Shown here: piece after piece, positions 1 through 64,000 of the stretch
Layout of the letters: every line of letters starts with the position of its first letter
Position numbering within the stretch: the first letter of the stretch is position 1
DNA from: Escherichia phage ECO103 4-12-1
DNA: 64,000 nucleotides
Strand: one strand, 5' to 3'
Sequence record: OR844650
Notes under the pieces: generated by a model
Told to the model about the DNA's origin: nothing
The model's database searches: none
Seen by the model: only the letters and a program-made list of their open reading frames with translations
Translations under genes and position numbers: made by a program

Positions 1-905
1 TAGAAAGAGAAACTCTTACTATCTTCATCAAAACGAGATGCGATATAACTATTGTTTAGTACACCACTTTTCGCTTCAATTTCTTGGAATGAATTACCAG
101 TATATGCTGGTACAATATTCCAAACTTGAGTTAGGGATGCATAACGTTTAATAACAAAACGAGTACCAAAATAGTTTGAACCATTTTGGGTGTAACCATC
201 ACGAATCCAAATGTTACCTTTTTCTACAGTTGAGCCAACTGGAACTTTGTTAATTGGTGATAGATAAGTTTCCATTTGCACTAGCCCAGAAGCAGAACGT
301 TTATACATTAGCATCTGACCATTGCTTGGTTTGTAACGTAGAACTAAATCATCAACATTTAAACCTACTAGACTTACATCTTCAACTTCTTCAGCACTTA
401 CAATAGTTACTGGCTTAAGTTGCCAATCATAAAAACTGCTTGGACTATCTTTCTTCGCTACATACGCTTCTACTTGTGATTGTGCGGTATCAAACCACAA
501 AGTACCATTGGATACTGGGCCAGTTGGTGCTTCAGCACTTGGTGCTAGTTGTGCTAGATCGATATCAGCACGAATTACATATGCACGGTTAGTAATGCCT
601 AGATAAGAATATACTGCATGTAGGCCATATTCGTTTAGTTCATCACCTTGAACAACAGAACCGTTATTCATTTGAAAAATTGGTGTACCATAGGTATCAA
701 GTGAGCTTTTTTGTGATGTTAGAAGCTGTAGTTTTCCAGCGTTTGCTTTAGTAGTTCCCGCAGCTATTGCACTGCTTCCTGGGACAAGTTTGTCTTCAGC
801 AGTAGCGATTACAAATAGTGGTACAGTGCCAGGAGCAGCAGCGGTACTCATACTTTCATCAGTTACTGAAATGGAAACGCCAGGTGAGAGTAGATCTCCT
901 GCCAT
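1..905 (-). CDS. tail sheath protein, N-terminal part (gene continues beyond window start)
   Basis: ATG at 905..903 preceded by GGAGGA; frame stays open to position 1; N-terminus MAGDLLSPGVSISVTDES resembles T4 gp18 N-terminus (MTLLSPGIEL..). Confidence 0.6.
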   Translation of the reverse strand, partial: MAGDLLSPGVSISVTDESMSTAAAPGTVPLFVIATAEDKLVPGSSAIAAGTTKANAGKLQLLTSQKSSLDTYGTPIFQMNNGSVVQGDELNEYGLHAVYSYLGITNRAYVIRADIDLAQLAPSAEAPTGPVSNGTLWFDTAQSQVEAYVAKKDSPSSFYDWQLKPVTIVSAEEVEDVSLVGLNVDDLVLRYKPSNGQMLMYKRSASGLVQMETYLSPINKVPVGSTVEKGNIWIRDGYTQNGSNYFGTRFVIKRYASLTQVWNIVPAYTGNSFQEIEAKSGVLNNSYIASRFDEDSKSFSF

Positions 906-999
906 ATTAAATCCTCCAAAAATAATTGGTTATTCGAAATATATTCGTATAGTCTTATTTATTGAAGGATTTAATTGTCCAGTCCTTATTGTTTATAAT

Positions 1000-1626
1000 T
1001 TATGTATTAGAATAAATAATGTCCATTGCTTTTTTATGTAAATCATCAATAGTACTGTTATTCTGTACAATTATATCAGGATTGTTTATGCCAATCCAAG
1101 CCCACTCAGATTCGTGTACTGTTTCTAGTTCAACTGGTTTAATATTAATATCCCCTTTATTATAAGAGGCCGCCAAACCATACCAATATGGTAGAACACG
1201 TTGAACTTCAATAATAGTCCCATTTTGCGATCTAATCATTTTTAATTCATTTGGAAAACGGCAATCAGTGATGATGATATTTCCATCTATTTCTTGCATT
1301 GATTTTTCTAAACTGAATACCCAAATATCATTATGAAAATACTTACGCAAAATATTAGTACCATAATTCTGCAATACCCATCGAGGGGATACATCACTAC
1401 GACCTAACTTATCACACCAGTACTGGTCCGGTTCTTCACGAATCTTACGACTTTCCTTAGTTGAACCTTCAAGCATTTCACGATCCCATCCAAAAATAGC
1501 AGCAACGGAATCTTTAAGATTAGTTGCAAATGACATTCTGGTGTAACCATTATTAATAAAAGTTTCTCCAAAAGTATCTTTACCACTTCCAATAGTACCG
1601 TTAATTGCAATTATTTGTCTTTCCAT
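1000..1626 (-). CDS. deoxynucleoside monophosphate kinase (T4 gp1-like)
   Basis: P-loop GTIGSGKDT; segments PRWVLQNYGTNIL and RFPNELKMIRSQNGTIIEV align with T4 gp1. Confidence 0.75.
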   Translation of the reverse strand: MERQIIAINGTIGSGKDTFGETFINNGYTRMSFATNLKDSVAAIFGWDREMLEGSTKESRKIREEPDQYWCDKLGRSDVSPRWVLQNYGTNILRKYFHNDIWVFSLEKSMQEIDGNIIITDCRFPNELKMIRSQNGTIIEVQRVLPYWYGLAASYNKGDINIKPVELETVHESEWAWIGINNPDIIVQNNSTIDDLHKKAMDIIYSNT

Positions 1627-1644
1627 AATACTTCTCCATGTATA

Positions 1645-1914
1645 TTATATAAGTACTACTAAATCCTTTCCTACTAAACATTCAAGGAATTGAACTATAA
1701 ACTCGCTCCCATAATATATAGTAACATAAGTGATGTAGAATGTTTCTCCATTATCATCACGACATATACTCGCCCACGCGTTTATTCGATCTCTACCGAA
1801 AACATCAACGATTGATTCTTTTAAAAATTTCCAGAATTTTTCTGTTGACTCATAATCTAATGTAGGTGCACCACAACTATATTTGTTATACATTGCATTT
1901 ATGTTATTATTCAT
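1645..1914 (-). CDS. hypothetical protein
   Basis: track ORF in co-oriented minus array; no motif recognised. Confidence 0.4.
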   Translation of the reverse strand: MNNNINAMYNKYSCGAPTLDYESTEKFWKFLKESIVDVFGRDRINAWASICRDDNGETFYITYVTIYYGSEFIVQFLECLVGKDLVVLI

Positions 1915-1990
1915 GACAAGTTCCTTTAGATTAATAGTATCATTATATCACATAATGTGAAAAAGACTCCATATAGGAGTCTTTTTTAAT

Positions 1991-2782
1991 TTAACCAATA
2001 ATCATACCTAGTGGTTCAGCACCATCTTGATAACGTTTCAAACGCTCTTTAAGCTGTTCCTGAAGTTGTAATCCTTCATTACGTAATGTATCACCATCCA
2101 TAGAAAACGTTCCCTGTGGACCTGGAAGAGAAGCAAATTTGGCACGGTTACGACCCAACATAATCATGGCTTCAGACAATGCCCAATCACGTAGCCAAGG
2201 ATAACTTTGCTGTCTTTGAAACAACAATGGTTCAGGAATATTATGATATACGTGTAATAGTACTTCTTCAGTACCGCGAATATCACGATCTATAATTAAT
2301 TTTTTGGTCATTGGGTTAAATTGAAATATAATATCACGACCAAACATACGACCTACCAGTTCTTGGAACTGAAAACTAAAATCATATGTAGTTAGATCAT
2401 ATCCACCTGCATTTCGTGCTGAAGTCAATAAGTAAGTGTTGGTGAATGCTAGAGAAAACGGATCTACTGAGTTCCCACTACCAGAACTTAAGTAACCATT
2501 ACCATAACGATAAATCTTTTTAACAATTTCAACTTCAGTTGGTAGCATATATACAGATTGTGAATCATAAAATTTCATATTTAAAAATGCTTCTTCTTTA
2601 GAAGCAGAACTCCACGCTCTGTAATTCGATACCGCATTATCAATTGCAATTTCTAATTGACCATCAGTAATTTCTACCTCAACGGCCCCAGCACCCAACA
2701 TTTGAGTGATAACATCTTTCAGTTTTTCACGATGGTCAAAGTTAGGAGCATCAGGGTTTCCACCCATATAATCGTAAGACAT
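1991..2782 (-). CDS. hypothetical protein (possibly virion-associated)
   Basis: track ORF 1991..2797; start moved to second ATG (2782) because GAGGTG lies 9 nt upstream of it. Confidence 0.45.
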   Translation of the reverse strand: MSYDYMGGNPDAPNFDHREKLKDVITQMLGAGAVEVEITDGQLEIAIDNAVSNYRAWSSASKEEAFLNMKFYDSQSVYMLPTEVEIVKKIYRYGNGYLSSGSGNSVDPFSLAFTNTYLLTSARNAGGYDLTTYDFSFQFQELVGRMFGRDIIFQFNPMTKKLIIDRDIRGTEEVLLHVYHNIPEPLLFQRQQSYPWLRDWALSEAMIMLGRNRAKFASLPGPQGTFSMDGDTLRNEGLQLQEQLKERLKRYQDGAEPLGMIIG

Positions 2783-2832
2783 AAAAAAGCACCTCATTAA
2801 TGTTTATATACATTATTTAGAGGTGCTAATAG

Positions 2833-62410: not shown

Positions 62411-62420
62411 AGAAGTTTCC

Positions 62421-63158
62421 TTAGAAATATATCATACCCATCAATTCAGAATCGGCGGGGCGAGTATAACCTTGCTTCTTAACTTTAAAATAGAATGATT
62501 CATGCTCTTCTAAATTATAACGTTTTTTCAAGCAACGAGTGTATGTCTGACAATTTGGGTGAACCCATTCATAAATGTGAATGCCATTTTCGTCATAACC
62601 ATTTATACTACAACGATTTCCTTCATGCTTCATGAAGTTTTTACTTTTTTCAGTAAATTCTTTCACTGTAGTTGTATATGGAGATTTGTATTCAAAAGGA
62701 ACTTCAGTCATACGAAAATAATAGTATTCTTCGTCTTCATCATATCCCAAGAGCACTGTGTTAGTTTCACGTACATTGTAATGATTCTTACTTTTTAATT
62801 CATTTTCGTATATATCTTTCAGTACTTCTGCAAAAACTTCCTCGCTTGATGCATTAGGATTAGATACACCTGATACTCGGCGTTCAATAATAAAATCAGT
62901 GAATTTACGGTCTTCGGCAATATCTTCGTTCATATAAAGACTAACAAACTTATCCTTATATGTCTTTACACTATATTGCTTACTTTGCACTTCACTATAA
63001 ACATCTGCTAACATATTCTCCTGACCACACTGCACACCACTTACAGAATAAGCACATGCATGTTCAGCCATTACTGATGTTAACATTTGGAAATTTGCCA
63101 TGTTTAATTCATTCGCCATCTCTGTAGCGAAACGGATACGGTCAAGCATTTCACACAC
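62421..63158 (-). CDS. hypothetical protein
   Basis: track ORF. Confidence 0.45.
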   Translation of the reverse strand: MCEMLDRIRFATEMANELNMANFQMLTSVMAEHACAYSVSGVQCGQENMLADVYSEVQSKQYSVKTYKDKFVSLYMNEDIAEDRKFTDFIIERRVSGVSNPNASSEEVFAEVLKDIYENELKSKNHYNVRETNTVLLGYDEDEEYYYFRMTEVPFEYKSPYTTTVKEFTEKSKNFMKHEGNRCSINGYDENGIHIYEWVHPNCQTYTRCLKKRYNLEEHESFYFKVKKQGYTRPADSELMGMIYF

Positions 63159-63207
63159 TCCTTGTGTTAATTATTGTTCCTTACCCATTATTATATCATG
63201 AATTAAA

Positions 63208-63504
63208 CTATTGTCCCTGTTTATAGCAATAAAGATTCTCTAATTTAAAGTCCACTAGGTCACATTCAGAACGTACTCGATTCTTGTTCCAGAATAAAAT
63301 ACGAATCCTTTCATAATCACGATAAACACTAATAATGCTTCGGTGCTTGGATTTGTAGTACTCCTGTACTATCCCCAGATACACAGTCCTCAATAAAGAC
63401 TTAGTTGGATAGGGAATATTCTGTGCTGACGTGATATTGTAAATCATCTTCATTGTTTCAGCAATAAGTACTTCATTTGTTCTCATTGTAATCCTTACAT
63501 ACAC
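63208..63504 (-). CDS. hypothetical protein
   Basis: track ORF. Confidence 0.4.
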   Translation of the reverse strand: MYVRITMRTNEVLIAETMKMIYNITSAQNIPYPTKSLLRTVYLGIVQEYYKSKHRSIISVYRDYERIRILFWNKNRVRSECDLVDFKLENLYCYKQGQ

Positions 63505-63645
63505 TATGCAAAGTAAACCCTAAACCAACACCGACAAATGGAAATAGTAAATTGATATACCAAGTATTAATTGATGAAAGGAAACAAATCCCACATACTG
63601 TCAGTACTGCCAATGAAAAAAGACTCCAGATAAAAAATACTGTTC

Positions 63646-63936
63646 TCATAAAAATATTACCTCATCAAATGAAAAGTTTAAGTACGTTGTTGAATCTTGG
63701 TCTAAACTATGAATAGTAATATGACCATTGAAATAAAAAGAAACATCAACTATTTGAAGTTTTGGGTATTTTCTAGTACTGAAATATCTACCCACTAACA
63801 CAGCATATATATAATCCCTGTACTCTTGAGTAATGAATTCATACATATTATGATTTGCACTGCACTTTTCATCATAAGTATTAGTATATTCTTTCATCAG
63901 TAGAGTATATGTTTTTTGTATTAATATGATATTCAT
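63646..63936 (-). CDS. hypothetical protein
   Basis: track ORF. Confidence 0.4.
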   Translation of the reverse strand: MNIILIQKTYTLLMKEYTNTYDEKCSANHNMYEFITQEYRDYIYAVLVGRYFSTRKYPKLQIVDVSFYFNGHITIHSLDQDSTTYLNFSFDEVIFL

Positions 63937-64000
63937 AAATCACCTAATACCTCAAAAATTACTGATATTGGGTATAATGGGTTACCAGTTGAAGTAATAC

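Follow-up and report, generated by a model that had tools for sequence, protein, structure and literature searches.

AGTACT, a palindromic hexamer, is the commonest of all 4096 hexamers in a stretch of 64,000 nucleotides of Escherichia phage ECO103 4-12-1 (sequence record OR844650; hereafter the window), in which 168 copies are present, or 2.6 per kb. Here we analyzed the abundance, placement, conservation and distribution of this word. It is enriched independently of coding, its flanks are symmetric, its copies are conserved with turnover, its excess is restricted to one clade, and it persists in an altered form where it meets a conflicting constraint. The reading which we favour, and which we hold tentatively, is that positive selection maintains AGTACT, flanked by a weaker outer layer (C-AGTACT-G), as a site in duplex DNA that is read by a two-fold-symmetric factor encoded by the RaK2-like lineage of enterobacterial jumbo phages.

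The count of 168 was compared with the expectations of several null models. From single-base composition 21.5 copies are expected, from a first-order Markov model 17.4, and 100 dinucleotide-preserving shuffles of the window gave 17.4±4.2 with a maximum of 26. The original prediction, made by reading the sequence alone, had estimated about 165 copies against 20-25 expected, and its count holds. A third-order Markov model expects 56.8, and the excess survives this model also. The order-4 expectation of 140 shows only that the signal resides in the 5-mers AGTAC and GTACT. Low-order composition is therefore ruled out as the cause by Markov orders 0-3 together with the dinucleotide shuffles. Within coding DNA 154 copies were observed, against 41.1±5.1 under synonymous-codon shuffles (z≈22) and 22.6±4.3 under codon-order shuffles, so the excess is not removed when the codons are preserved. 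When hexamers were ranked by the synonymous shuffles, the top outliers were AGTACT (z 25), CAGTAC (z 16) and GTACTG (z 16), and the next hexamer was below 8. Codon or dipeptide bias is ruled out by these two shuffles, by the spread of the copies over three frames and by the non-coding sites.

No other palindromic hexamer of the window exceeds 1.9×. The one-mismatch neighbours of AGTACT lie at 0.7-2.2× in the window and are never depleted as a class; they are near expectation or mildly raised, much as had been predicted. For genome-wide counts the record of the related phage phAPEC6 (MK817115, 352 kb) was put together from nine fetched pieces. Genome-wide, the nine classes of one-mismatch neighbours range over 0.49-2.0×, and AATACT/AGTATT, the deamination product, stands at 1.07×.

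The longer words CAGTACTG, TCAGTACTGA and TTCAGTACTGAA were counted 34, 9 and 3 times in the window; for CAGTACTG at least 30 copies had been foreseen. The three perfect 12-mer palindromes TTCAGTACTGAA are at 29172..29183 in the nrdG-like open reading frame (ORF) region, at 34540..34551 as an exact match, and at 49795..49806 in the DNA ligase gene. Their existence had been predicted rightly, and each of the predicted positions was off by one base.

The 168 copies extend over 1051..63780, from the first at 1051-1056 to the last at 63775-63780. They fall in all three reading frames (69, 30 and 55 copies), as had been claimed, and another 14 lie outside ORFs or across an ORF boundary at about the density of coding DNA. 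The non-coding copies named in the original prediction were all found, and they include those starting at 16303, 16328, 16520, 34105, 34123, 43749 and 59102. The first three of these (16303..16525) stand in the non-coding island 15982-16671, and the next two (34105..34128) are 18 bp apart in a 34-bp intergenic spacer that precedes a gene of the minus strand. The copy at 43749..43754 represents the promoter-linked subclass in the window; it lies between the two hexamers of a promoter of sigma-70-like type, read on the minus strand (TTGACT-taagtgtttaAGTACTa-TATTAT, N17 spacer).

The bases around the core form a weak extended consensus, TT-C-AGTACT-G-AA. Of the 168 sites, 77 are preceded by C at -1 (background 19%) and 79 are followed by G at +1 (background 14.5%). 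The reverse flanks, G before the core (8 sites) and C after it (15 sites), are disfavoured. Faint mirror shoulders follow, T-rich from -4 to -2 and A-rich from +2 to +4, and there is no signal further out. The excess does not come from repeat families or from cassette duplication within the window, as the flanks are uninformative past ±4. The two flanks are independent of each other, with 34 copies of CAGTACTG against about 36 expected from the marginals. A core of 6-8 bases cannot form an RNA hairpin.

Spacing between sites in the window has a mean of 376 bp, a coefficient of variation (CV) of 0.76 and a largest gap of 1313 bp. In the genome body the CV is 0.89 against 1.04±0.04 for a density-matched null (z=-3.8), which is slightly more even than random, and in phAPEC6 no gap outside special regions is longer than 2.3 kb.

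Selection on these sites was examined by aligning the window with the phage Ecwhy_1 (83.5% identity). Among 123 aligned AGTACT sites 86 (70%) are intact in Ecwhy_1, against 41% of all hexamer windows. Inside ORFs 111 sites were aligned; by frame-matched controls 46 of them would be retained, and 78 are (binomial p≈1e-9). Each genome has about 30% of its sites to itself, and the totals match, 123 versus 120; the sites lost in this alignment show no favoured substitution. AGTACT is under purifying selection at the DNA level, with positional turnover. The original prediction had argued for selection on the DNA and not for a dipeptide preference, and this is borne out by the frames, the non-coding sites, the symmetric and independent flanks, the codon shuffles and the conservation.

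The same pattern is found genome-wide. In phAPEC6 there are 918 copies of AGTACT against 120 expected, and it is again the commonest hexamer, with CAGTAC and GTACTG (9.1-9.2×) as the most enriched ones. ORFs hold 779 of the 918 sites, evenly along gene length, and the density in non-coding DNA is equal to or above that in coding DNA. Immediately before start codons the sites are depleted, and from -80 to -40 they are slightly more frequent. Structural and replication genes lie in a region with 11-23 copies per 10 kb, the early region of small genes (330-350 kb) reaches 66-67, and the rest of the genome has 18-42; the density is in the order early > middle > late.

Some of the phAPEC6 copies are linked to promoters. 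A duplicated sigma-70 promoter cassette at 325-345 kb, on the gene strand, reads AGTACT-TGCAAT-N8-AGTACT-G-TATAAT followed by AAGGGGAG, with its two AGTACT copies 20 bp apart. Promoter-overlapping copies were found in two genera, as AGTAC|TTGCAA and AGTACTGTATAAT in phAPEC6 and as AGTAC|TTGACA in the Cronobacter phage GAP32. In total about 20-45 of the 918 sites are promoter-linked, and a subclass of them overlaps -35 or extended -10 elements. Promoter or operator elements would hold a fixed position at -35 or -10 and lie only between genes; the AGTACT set does neither.

A second AGTACT-poor island, apart from the gene block described below, covers 5 kb of phAPEC6 (319424-324424) and has two copies only, both close to its margins. 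The island consists of paralogous mini-genes of about 215-230 bp in tandem, with a few AGTACA at paralogous positions. A replication origin with diverging asymmetric variants at about 317-319 kb was considered and dropped, because this island is a paralogous small-gene array and the GC skew has no inflection there.

The distribution of AGTACT among other genomes was obtained as observed/expected ratios (O/E) from sampled sequence, for example from 50-kb samples of E. coli K-12 (1.00-1.05 Mb), rV5 and Kaldavass. The ratio is 6.9 in the Klebsiella phage RaK2, 6.8 and 8.3 in two samples of GAP32, 6.7 in the Pectobacterium phage CBB, 9.3 in the Erwinia phage Kaldavass (152 copies per 50 kb) and 7.9 in the E. 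coli phage Ecwhy_1. The distant relatives PA5oct (Pseudomonas) and RsoM2USA (Ralstonia) gave 0.18 and 0.78, and in one 50-kb sample each the unrelated coliphage rV5 gave 0.14 (2 copies versus 14.5 expected) and the host E. coli K-12 gave 0.26 (3 versus 11.6). Since an excess of 7-9× is met only in the enterobacterial RaK2-like samples, the enrichment is a property of that lineage. The trend in the host and in the unrelated coliphage is the opposite one. Per kb, E. coli K-12 as sampled has 0.06 copies and rV5 has 0.04, against 2.6 in the window, and the contrast between phage and host sample is about 45-fold, or about one site per 0.38 kb versus one per 17 kb.

This excess is found in genomes that strongly avoid palindromic hexamers. 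In the window 27 of the 64 palindromic hexamers have zero copies, each with 1.3-5.3 expected, and in the 352 kb of phAPEC6 23 are at zero, each with 8.5-32 expected. All of the zero-count palindromes hold 4-6 G/C (e.g. GGATCC, CTGCAG, CCATGG and GAGCTC). Per 50 kb 24-30 of them were counted in RaK2, GAP32, CBB and Kaldavass, 5 in PA5oct and 1 in RsoM2USA. As the clade purges nearly all GC-rich palindromes, the retention of about 900 ScaI-type sites implies a real benefit. It was also observed that CTGCAG is the most or nearly the most enriched palindrome in PA5oct, RsoM2USA and rV5 (3-4.4×) and is wholly absent from the AGTACT-rich clade.

The conflicting constraint is found in a gene block outside the window. 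In phAPEC6 (MK817115) the interval 309138-316764 (locus L008, 28138-35764), 7,626 bp with about 18 consecutive ORFs and covering gp448c-gp462c, has no AGT on the plus strand, which is to say no ACT on the coding strand, against an expectation of about 140. Elsewhere in the 352 kb no run without AGT is longer than 459 bp, and no other trinucleotide behaves alike. ACT is shunned in all three frames through synonymous choices: the Thr codon ACT is used 0 times in 105 against 42% in the flanking genes, the codon junction NAC|T occurs 0 times versus 131 for NAT|T, and NNA|CTN occurs 0 times versus 54 for NNA|TTR. The same block is present in genomes that were sequenced independently, namely in 121Q (locus L017, 6074-13585; 7,511 bp), in Ecwhy_1 (locus L018, 8073-15912; 7,839 bp) and in Turkey5 (locus L022, 6032-11164; 4.4 and 0.7 kb), where one block protein is only 55% identical in Ecwhy_1 and only 27% in Turkey5. 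A sequencing artefact is ruled out by this recurrence and by the Illumina sequencing of phAPEC6. The E. coli toxins MazF (ACA), MqsR (GCU) and ChpB (ACD) were considered as the cause and rejected, for their targets do not match an avoidance of ACU only; ACA is enriched in the block and not avoided. Scans of 10 block ORFs against Pfam and PHROG gave only families of unknown function.

AGTACT carries ACT on both of its strands and is therefore impossible in this block. Its place is taken at like density by AGTACA, with 38 copies on the coding strand (14×, about 5 per kb). The variant has the form cAGTACAg, is spread over the frames (13, 13 and 10) and keeps C at -1 in 45% and G at +1 in 39%; its outer base is A in 38 cases, C in 1 and G in 1 (AGTACC and AGTACG once each). 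Only 16 of the 38 copies keep their position between phAPEC6 and Ecwhy_1, and none of the others is ever AGTACT. A site with one half changed at the outer base (A·T to T·A) is still selected. The takeover by AGTACA points to a pressure for a near-cognate site all along the DNA, and since AGTACA is itself enriched and turning over here, a drive toward AGTACT as such is not the explanation.

Known or candidate DNA-binding and DNA-modifying proteins were compared with this pattern. An HNH endonuclease of the window (17481..18137, minus strand) is a candidate only; its homologues are in Asteriusvirus, in Alcyoneusvirus (RaK2, K64-1), in Salmonella phage Munch and in Erwinia phage Hallingskeid, with weaker ones in unrelated jumbo phages, and none from GAP32, CBB or Kaldavass is among the matches listed. 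A fusion of PIN_4 and PhoH domains (479 aa; 38516..39955, minus strand; PF13638 7e-20, PF02562 7e-44) has by its domain matches the architecture of PhoH2-type RNA helicase/RNases; it is a candidate enzyme for reading nucleic acid, and nothing ties it to AGTACT. RCC1-like "DNA condensation" virion proteins were rejected as the reader, their distribution being off that of the enrichment: GAP32 and Kaldavass have one copy each, rV5-like phages have them as well, and no RaK2 protein is among the matches listed. The phage methyltransferases are a short C5-cytosine type (PF00145) and a Dam-family enzyme (PF05869), which match the CCWGG and GATC motifs reported in relatives.

Nanopore sequencing of native versus amplified DNA of Kaldavass and Hallingskeid found modification at GATC, CCWGG and TGCAT only, and no nicks (PMC11780129). 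On this analysis AGTACT probably does not mark packaged DNA by methylation or nicks, and the base modification and virion nicking that had been offered as options are weakened, given that our count for Kaldavass shows 9.3× enrichment. The other options offered, a part in DNA binding, recombination or packaging, may hold.

SlmA, the nucleoid-occlusion factor of the host, deserved attention because its consensus GTGAGTACTCAC has an AGTACT core; its site is GTRAGY·RCTYAC and needs G, T, a purine, A and G at half-site positions 1-5 (PMC3020112). The full site is absent from the 352 kb of phAPEC6, and SlmA-type half flanks occur at 20 of 1836 AGTACT half-sites (1.1%) versus about 2.8% expected. SlmA binding is largely refuted by these two results and by the base at -1, which is C in 46% and G in 5%.

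From the phage/host contrast in density it follows that a reader of AGTACT would load preferentially, and fairly evenly, on phage DNA. We infer the existence, the kind and the action of such a protein. Once loaded it could mark the phage DNA as self for a genome-wide process, which may be organisation or compaction, protection, or the recruitment of replication, recombination or transcription machinery, and the early-region sites over -35 and extended -10 elements could double as operators. On this reading the reader should prefer duplexes in the order CAGTACTG > CAGTACAG >> scrambled. A broader proposal, possible and more doubtful, is a code of two layers: a dense and modification-free self mark of about 900 AGTACT per genome with a clade-specific reader, and an ACT-free block that is immune to a trinucleotide-specific RNase, primase or nickase. 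If it is true, the collision of both constraints, AGTACT to AGTACA in the block, makes both layers directly testable.

Several points weigh against the favoured reading of a symmetric duplex reader. The departure of the spacing from random is modest. The density varies over 11-67 per 10 kb and is lowest in conserved genes for structure and replication, which could reflect coding freedom and not function. The promoter-linked copies of phAPEC6 are not independent, because they are part of a duplicated cassette, and ACTTGACA resembles an ordinary extended -35 consensus. The depletion in the host is estimated from a single 50-kb sample. No AGTACT-reading protein was found among the candidates HNH, PIN-PhoH, RCC1-like and the two methyltransferases, which are not clade-specific or are unlinked to the word. 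A transient enzyme (nickase, endonuclease or primase) or a reader acting on each strand by itself would leave the same signature and would fit equally well.

Transient enzyme action is the main rival, and we regard it as rather unlikely. The sites would then be points of cutting or nicking at AGT|ACT during infection, seeding recombination-dependent replication, or the starts of a DnaG-family (T4-type) primase, for which the template 5'-(C)AGTAC-T-3' would give the primer pppGUACU(G) and the palindrome a start on both strands. The same word on both strands would suit forks moving in either direction, and the fairly even spacing, the absence of gaps above 2.3 kb outside special regions, the asymmetric halves CAGTAC and GTACTG as the most enriched hexamers and the block variant, which keeps the word on one strand only, agree with it. 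T4 primase uses the trinucleotides GTT and GCT, and ACT plus context is within the style of that family; we know of no primase that requires a site of 6-8 bases, however, and this speaks against the primase version. Much of the clade has kept an HNH nuclease, and T4-like UvsX, UvsW, gp46/47 and primase-helicase genes are present in the phage, but no enzyme is assigned to AGTACT. The virion DNA of Kaldavass has no reported nicks, though transient breaks would escape detection there. Furthermore, CAGTA-type pentamers are already present about once per kb by chance, so that it is not obvious why an excess would be needed, and the G at +1 kept in the block variant is better explained by recognition of the duplex than by reading of one strand.

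Reading in RNA is improbable in our judgement: AGUACU would be an endoribonuclease target that sets mRNA lifetimes, with PIN-PhoH as one candidate and the ACU-free block as immune transcripts. The palindrome and the mirror flanks are left unexplained by it, as nearly all genes are on one strand, and non-coding DNA holds AGTACT at a density no lower than that of coding DNA. Ordinary genes carry ACT outside AGTACT at its usual frequency, cleavage sites in the phage's own late structural mRNAs are hard to rationalise, and the targets of MazF, MqsR and ChpB do not fit. In its favour stand the block itself (7.6 kb, about 18 ORFs, zero ACT versus 140 expected, by synonymous avoidance in three frames), its upkeep in 121Q, Ecwhy_1 and Turkey5, which resembles site avoidance at the RNA level, the gradient of density from early to late, and the encoded PIN and PhoH fusion with an extensive RNA-repair set. 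PhoH2 proteins are reported as sequence-specific RNA helicase/RNases, and their role in jumbo phages has been termed enigmatic (PMC7824862).

A neutral or selfish drive, in the form of biased repair of heteroduplexes like very-short-patch (VSP) repair or of a mutational bias toward AGTACT, seems quite improbable. T4-like phages recombine heavily and have abundant heteroduplex DNA, a C5-methyltransferase is encoded, and such a drive would also give the appearance of conserved sites. As no one-mismatch neighbour is depleted (AATACT/AGTATT at 1.07×), conversion of the VSP type from one precursor is unlikely. VSP effects are roughly 2×, far below the 8× excess, and neither the 14× enrichment of AGTACA with turnover in the ACT-free block nor a spacing more even than random agrees with a drive. 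A further reading, and a very improbable one, has a methyltransferase or other modifying enzyme of the phage act on AGTACT, which would make the word an orphan ScaI-type mark with an epigenetic use such as strand discrimination or protection. The two encoded methyltransferases, the hint of protection given by about 900 ScaI-type sites in a palindrome-purging genome and the report that RaK2 DNA is refractory to many enzymes (PMC3622015) are consistent with such a mark. Both enzymes are, however, already accounted for by GATC and CCWGG, and the nanopore data of Kaldavass and Hallingskeid show only GATC, CCWGG and TGCAT, at an AGTACT density in Kaldavass of 3 per kb, implying an order of 1,000 sites per genome that would be easily detectable (PMC11780129). 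Methylation targets are, moreover, not normally over-represented. The binding or titration of a host protein such as SlmA, as a block of division or a sponge for a regulator, is the explanation to which we give the least credence. The SlmA site shares the core (PMC3020112) and in the sampled genomes the enrichment is limited to phages of Enterobacterales, but there is no full SlmA site, SlmA-type half flanks are under-used, and C, not a purine, is preferred at -1. The depletion of AGTACT in the unrelated coliphage rV5 also goes against a general host-driven benefit.

As regards the source, a probe of 8 kb from the window matches jumbo coliphages of Asteriusvirus (BF17 99.8%, phAPEC6 99.7%, slurp01 99.6%, and PBECO4 and 121Q 93-99%), and the window corresponds to about 216.8-281 kb in phAPEC6 coordinates. 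About 114 ORFs were counted in it, of which 113 are encoded by the minus strand, with genes for nrdD/nrdG, DNA ligase, PseT, RNA ligase 1, a CCA-adding enzyme, ClpP, Sir2 and the PIN-PhoH fusion. An RNA-repair set is gathered in this one window, composed of the CCA-adding enzyme, an RlaP nucleotidyltransferase, Pnkp and a T4-type RNA ligase 1; the genes are at 5579-6691, 19432-20664, 57077-58009 and 59106-60248, all on the minus strand. This toolkit suggests that the phage expects RNA-cleaving host defences. The Chi octamer GCTGGTGG was also counted, and phAPEC6 has 27 copies against about 1.9 expected. Nine co-oriented copies are in the early region (325-344 kb), in an orientation which fits RecBCD moving to higher coordinates, and in the window Chi is at 14037 on the plus strand and at 52232 and 60157 on the minus strand.

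The retention of AGTACT implies a strong and unrecognised genome-wide function in a group of phages studied for therapy (RaK2, 121Q, PBECO4, phAPEC6, GAP32 and CBB). If the word marks self, it would explain how unmodified jumbo phages that have no phage nucleus keep their DNA apart from that of the host, and it would give a handle for finding the reader by ScaI digestion and oligo pull-downs. One restriction system specific for AGTACT should devastate RaK2-like jumbo phages, and any recoding or synthesis of their genes must respect the word. The ACT-free block is a ready natural experiment for the questions of AGTACT and of ACT exclusion alike.

Over-represented functional words are already known, among them Chi, the DNA uptake sequences and uptake signal sequences (DUS/USS), GATC, stoperators and nick motifs. 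For a palindromic hexamer with about 8× excess and about 900 viral copies, amid palindrome avoidance and opposite to the host, no published description was found, and AGTACT appears to be a new variant; our literature searches gave no account of the motif in phages of this group, and a search for CAGTACTG gave primer sequences only. Chi (GCTGGTGG) and DUS/USS are the nearest in kind, being short selected words that are far denser than in foreign DNA, lie in all frames and turn over, and AGTACT shares with them the higher density in its own DNA and the selection with turnover. Those words are asymmetric, strand-oriented, 8-12 bases long, found in bacteria and read by known proteins (RecBCD, ComP and others), whereas AGTACT is a viral palindrome of 6-8 bp at 5-10× higher density with no known reader. 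GATC of the gamma-proteobacteria (Dam, SeqA, MutH) is likewise a short and fairly even palindrome, read on the duplex by symmetric proteins for genome-wide housekeeping. Overall it shows no strong excess, and it works through methylation; AGTACT, in contrast, has about 8× excess, and methylation was not detected in the relative Kaldavass.

The stoperators of mycobacteriophages resemble AGTACT in being many copies of a short site along a phage genome, some of them over promoters. They number about 20-35 per genome and are asymmetric 13-bp sites, oriented with transcription and intergenic, unlike the approximately 900 palindromic copies of AGTACT, of which 85% are in genes. Nick motifs of T5, of phiKMV-like phages and of Rembedalsseter-like phages (WACTRTGAC; PMC11780129) are also short, conserved, clade-enriched and mostly intragenic. 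These are strand-specific, occur about 10-13 times per genome and are nicked in virion DNA, whereas AGTACT has about 900 palindromic sites and a relative without reported nicks. The target of a ScaI-type type II restriction-modification system is the identical 6-bp palindrome, whose length and symmetry are usual for type II enzymes, and no ScaI-like methyltransferase or endonuclease was identified in the phage. Phages are known to avoid short palindromes, and restriction targets are among the sites they avoid; AGTACT, on the contrary, is enriched 7-9× in this clade and depleted in both rV5 and E. coli.

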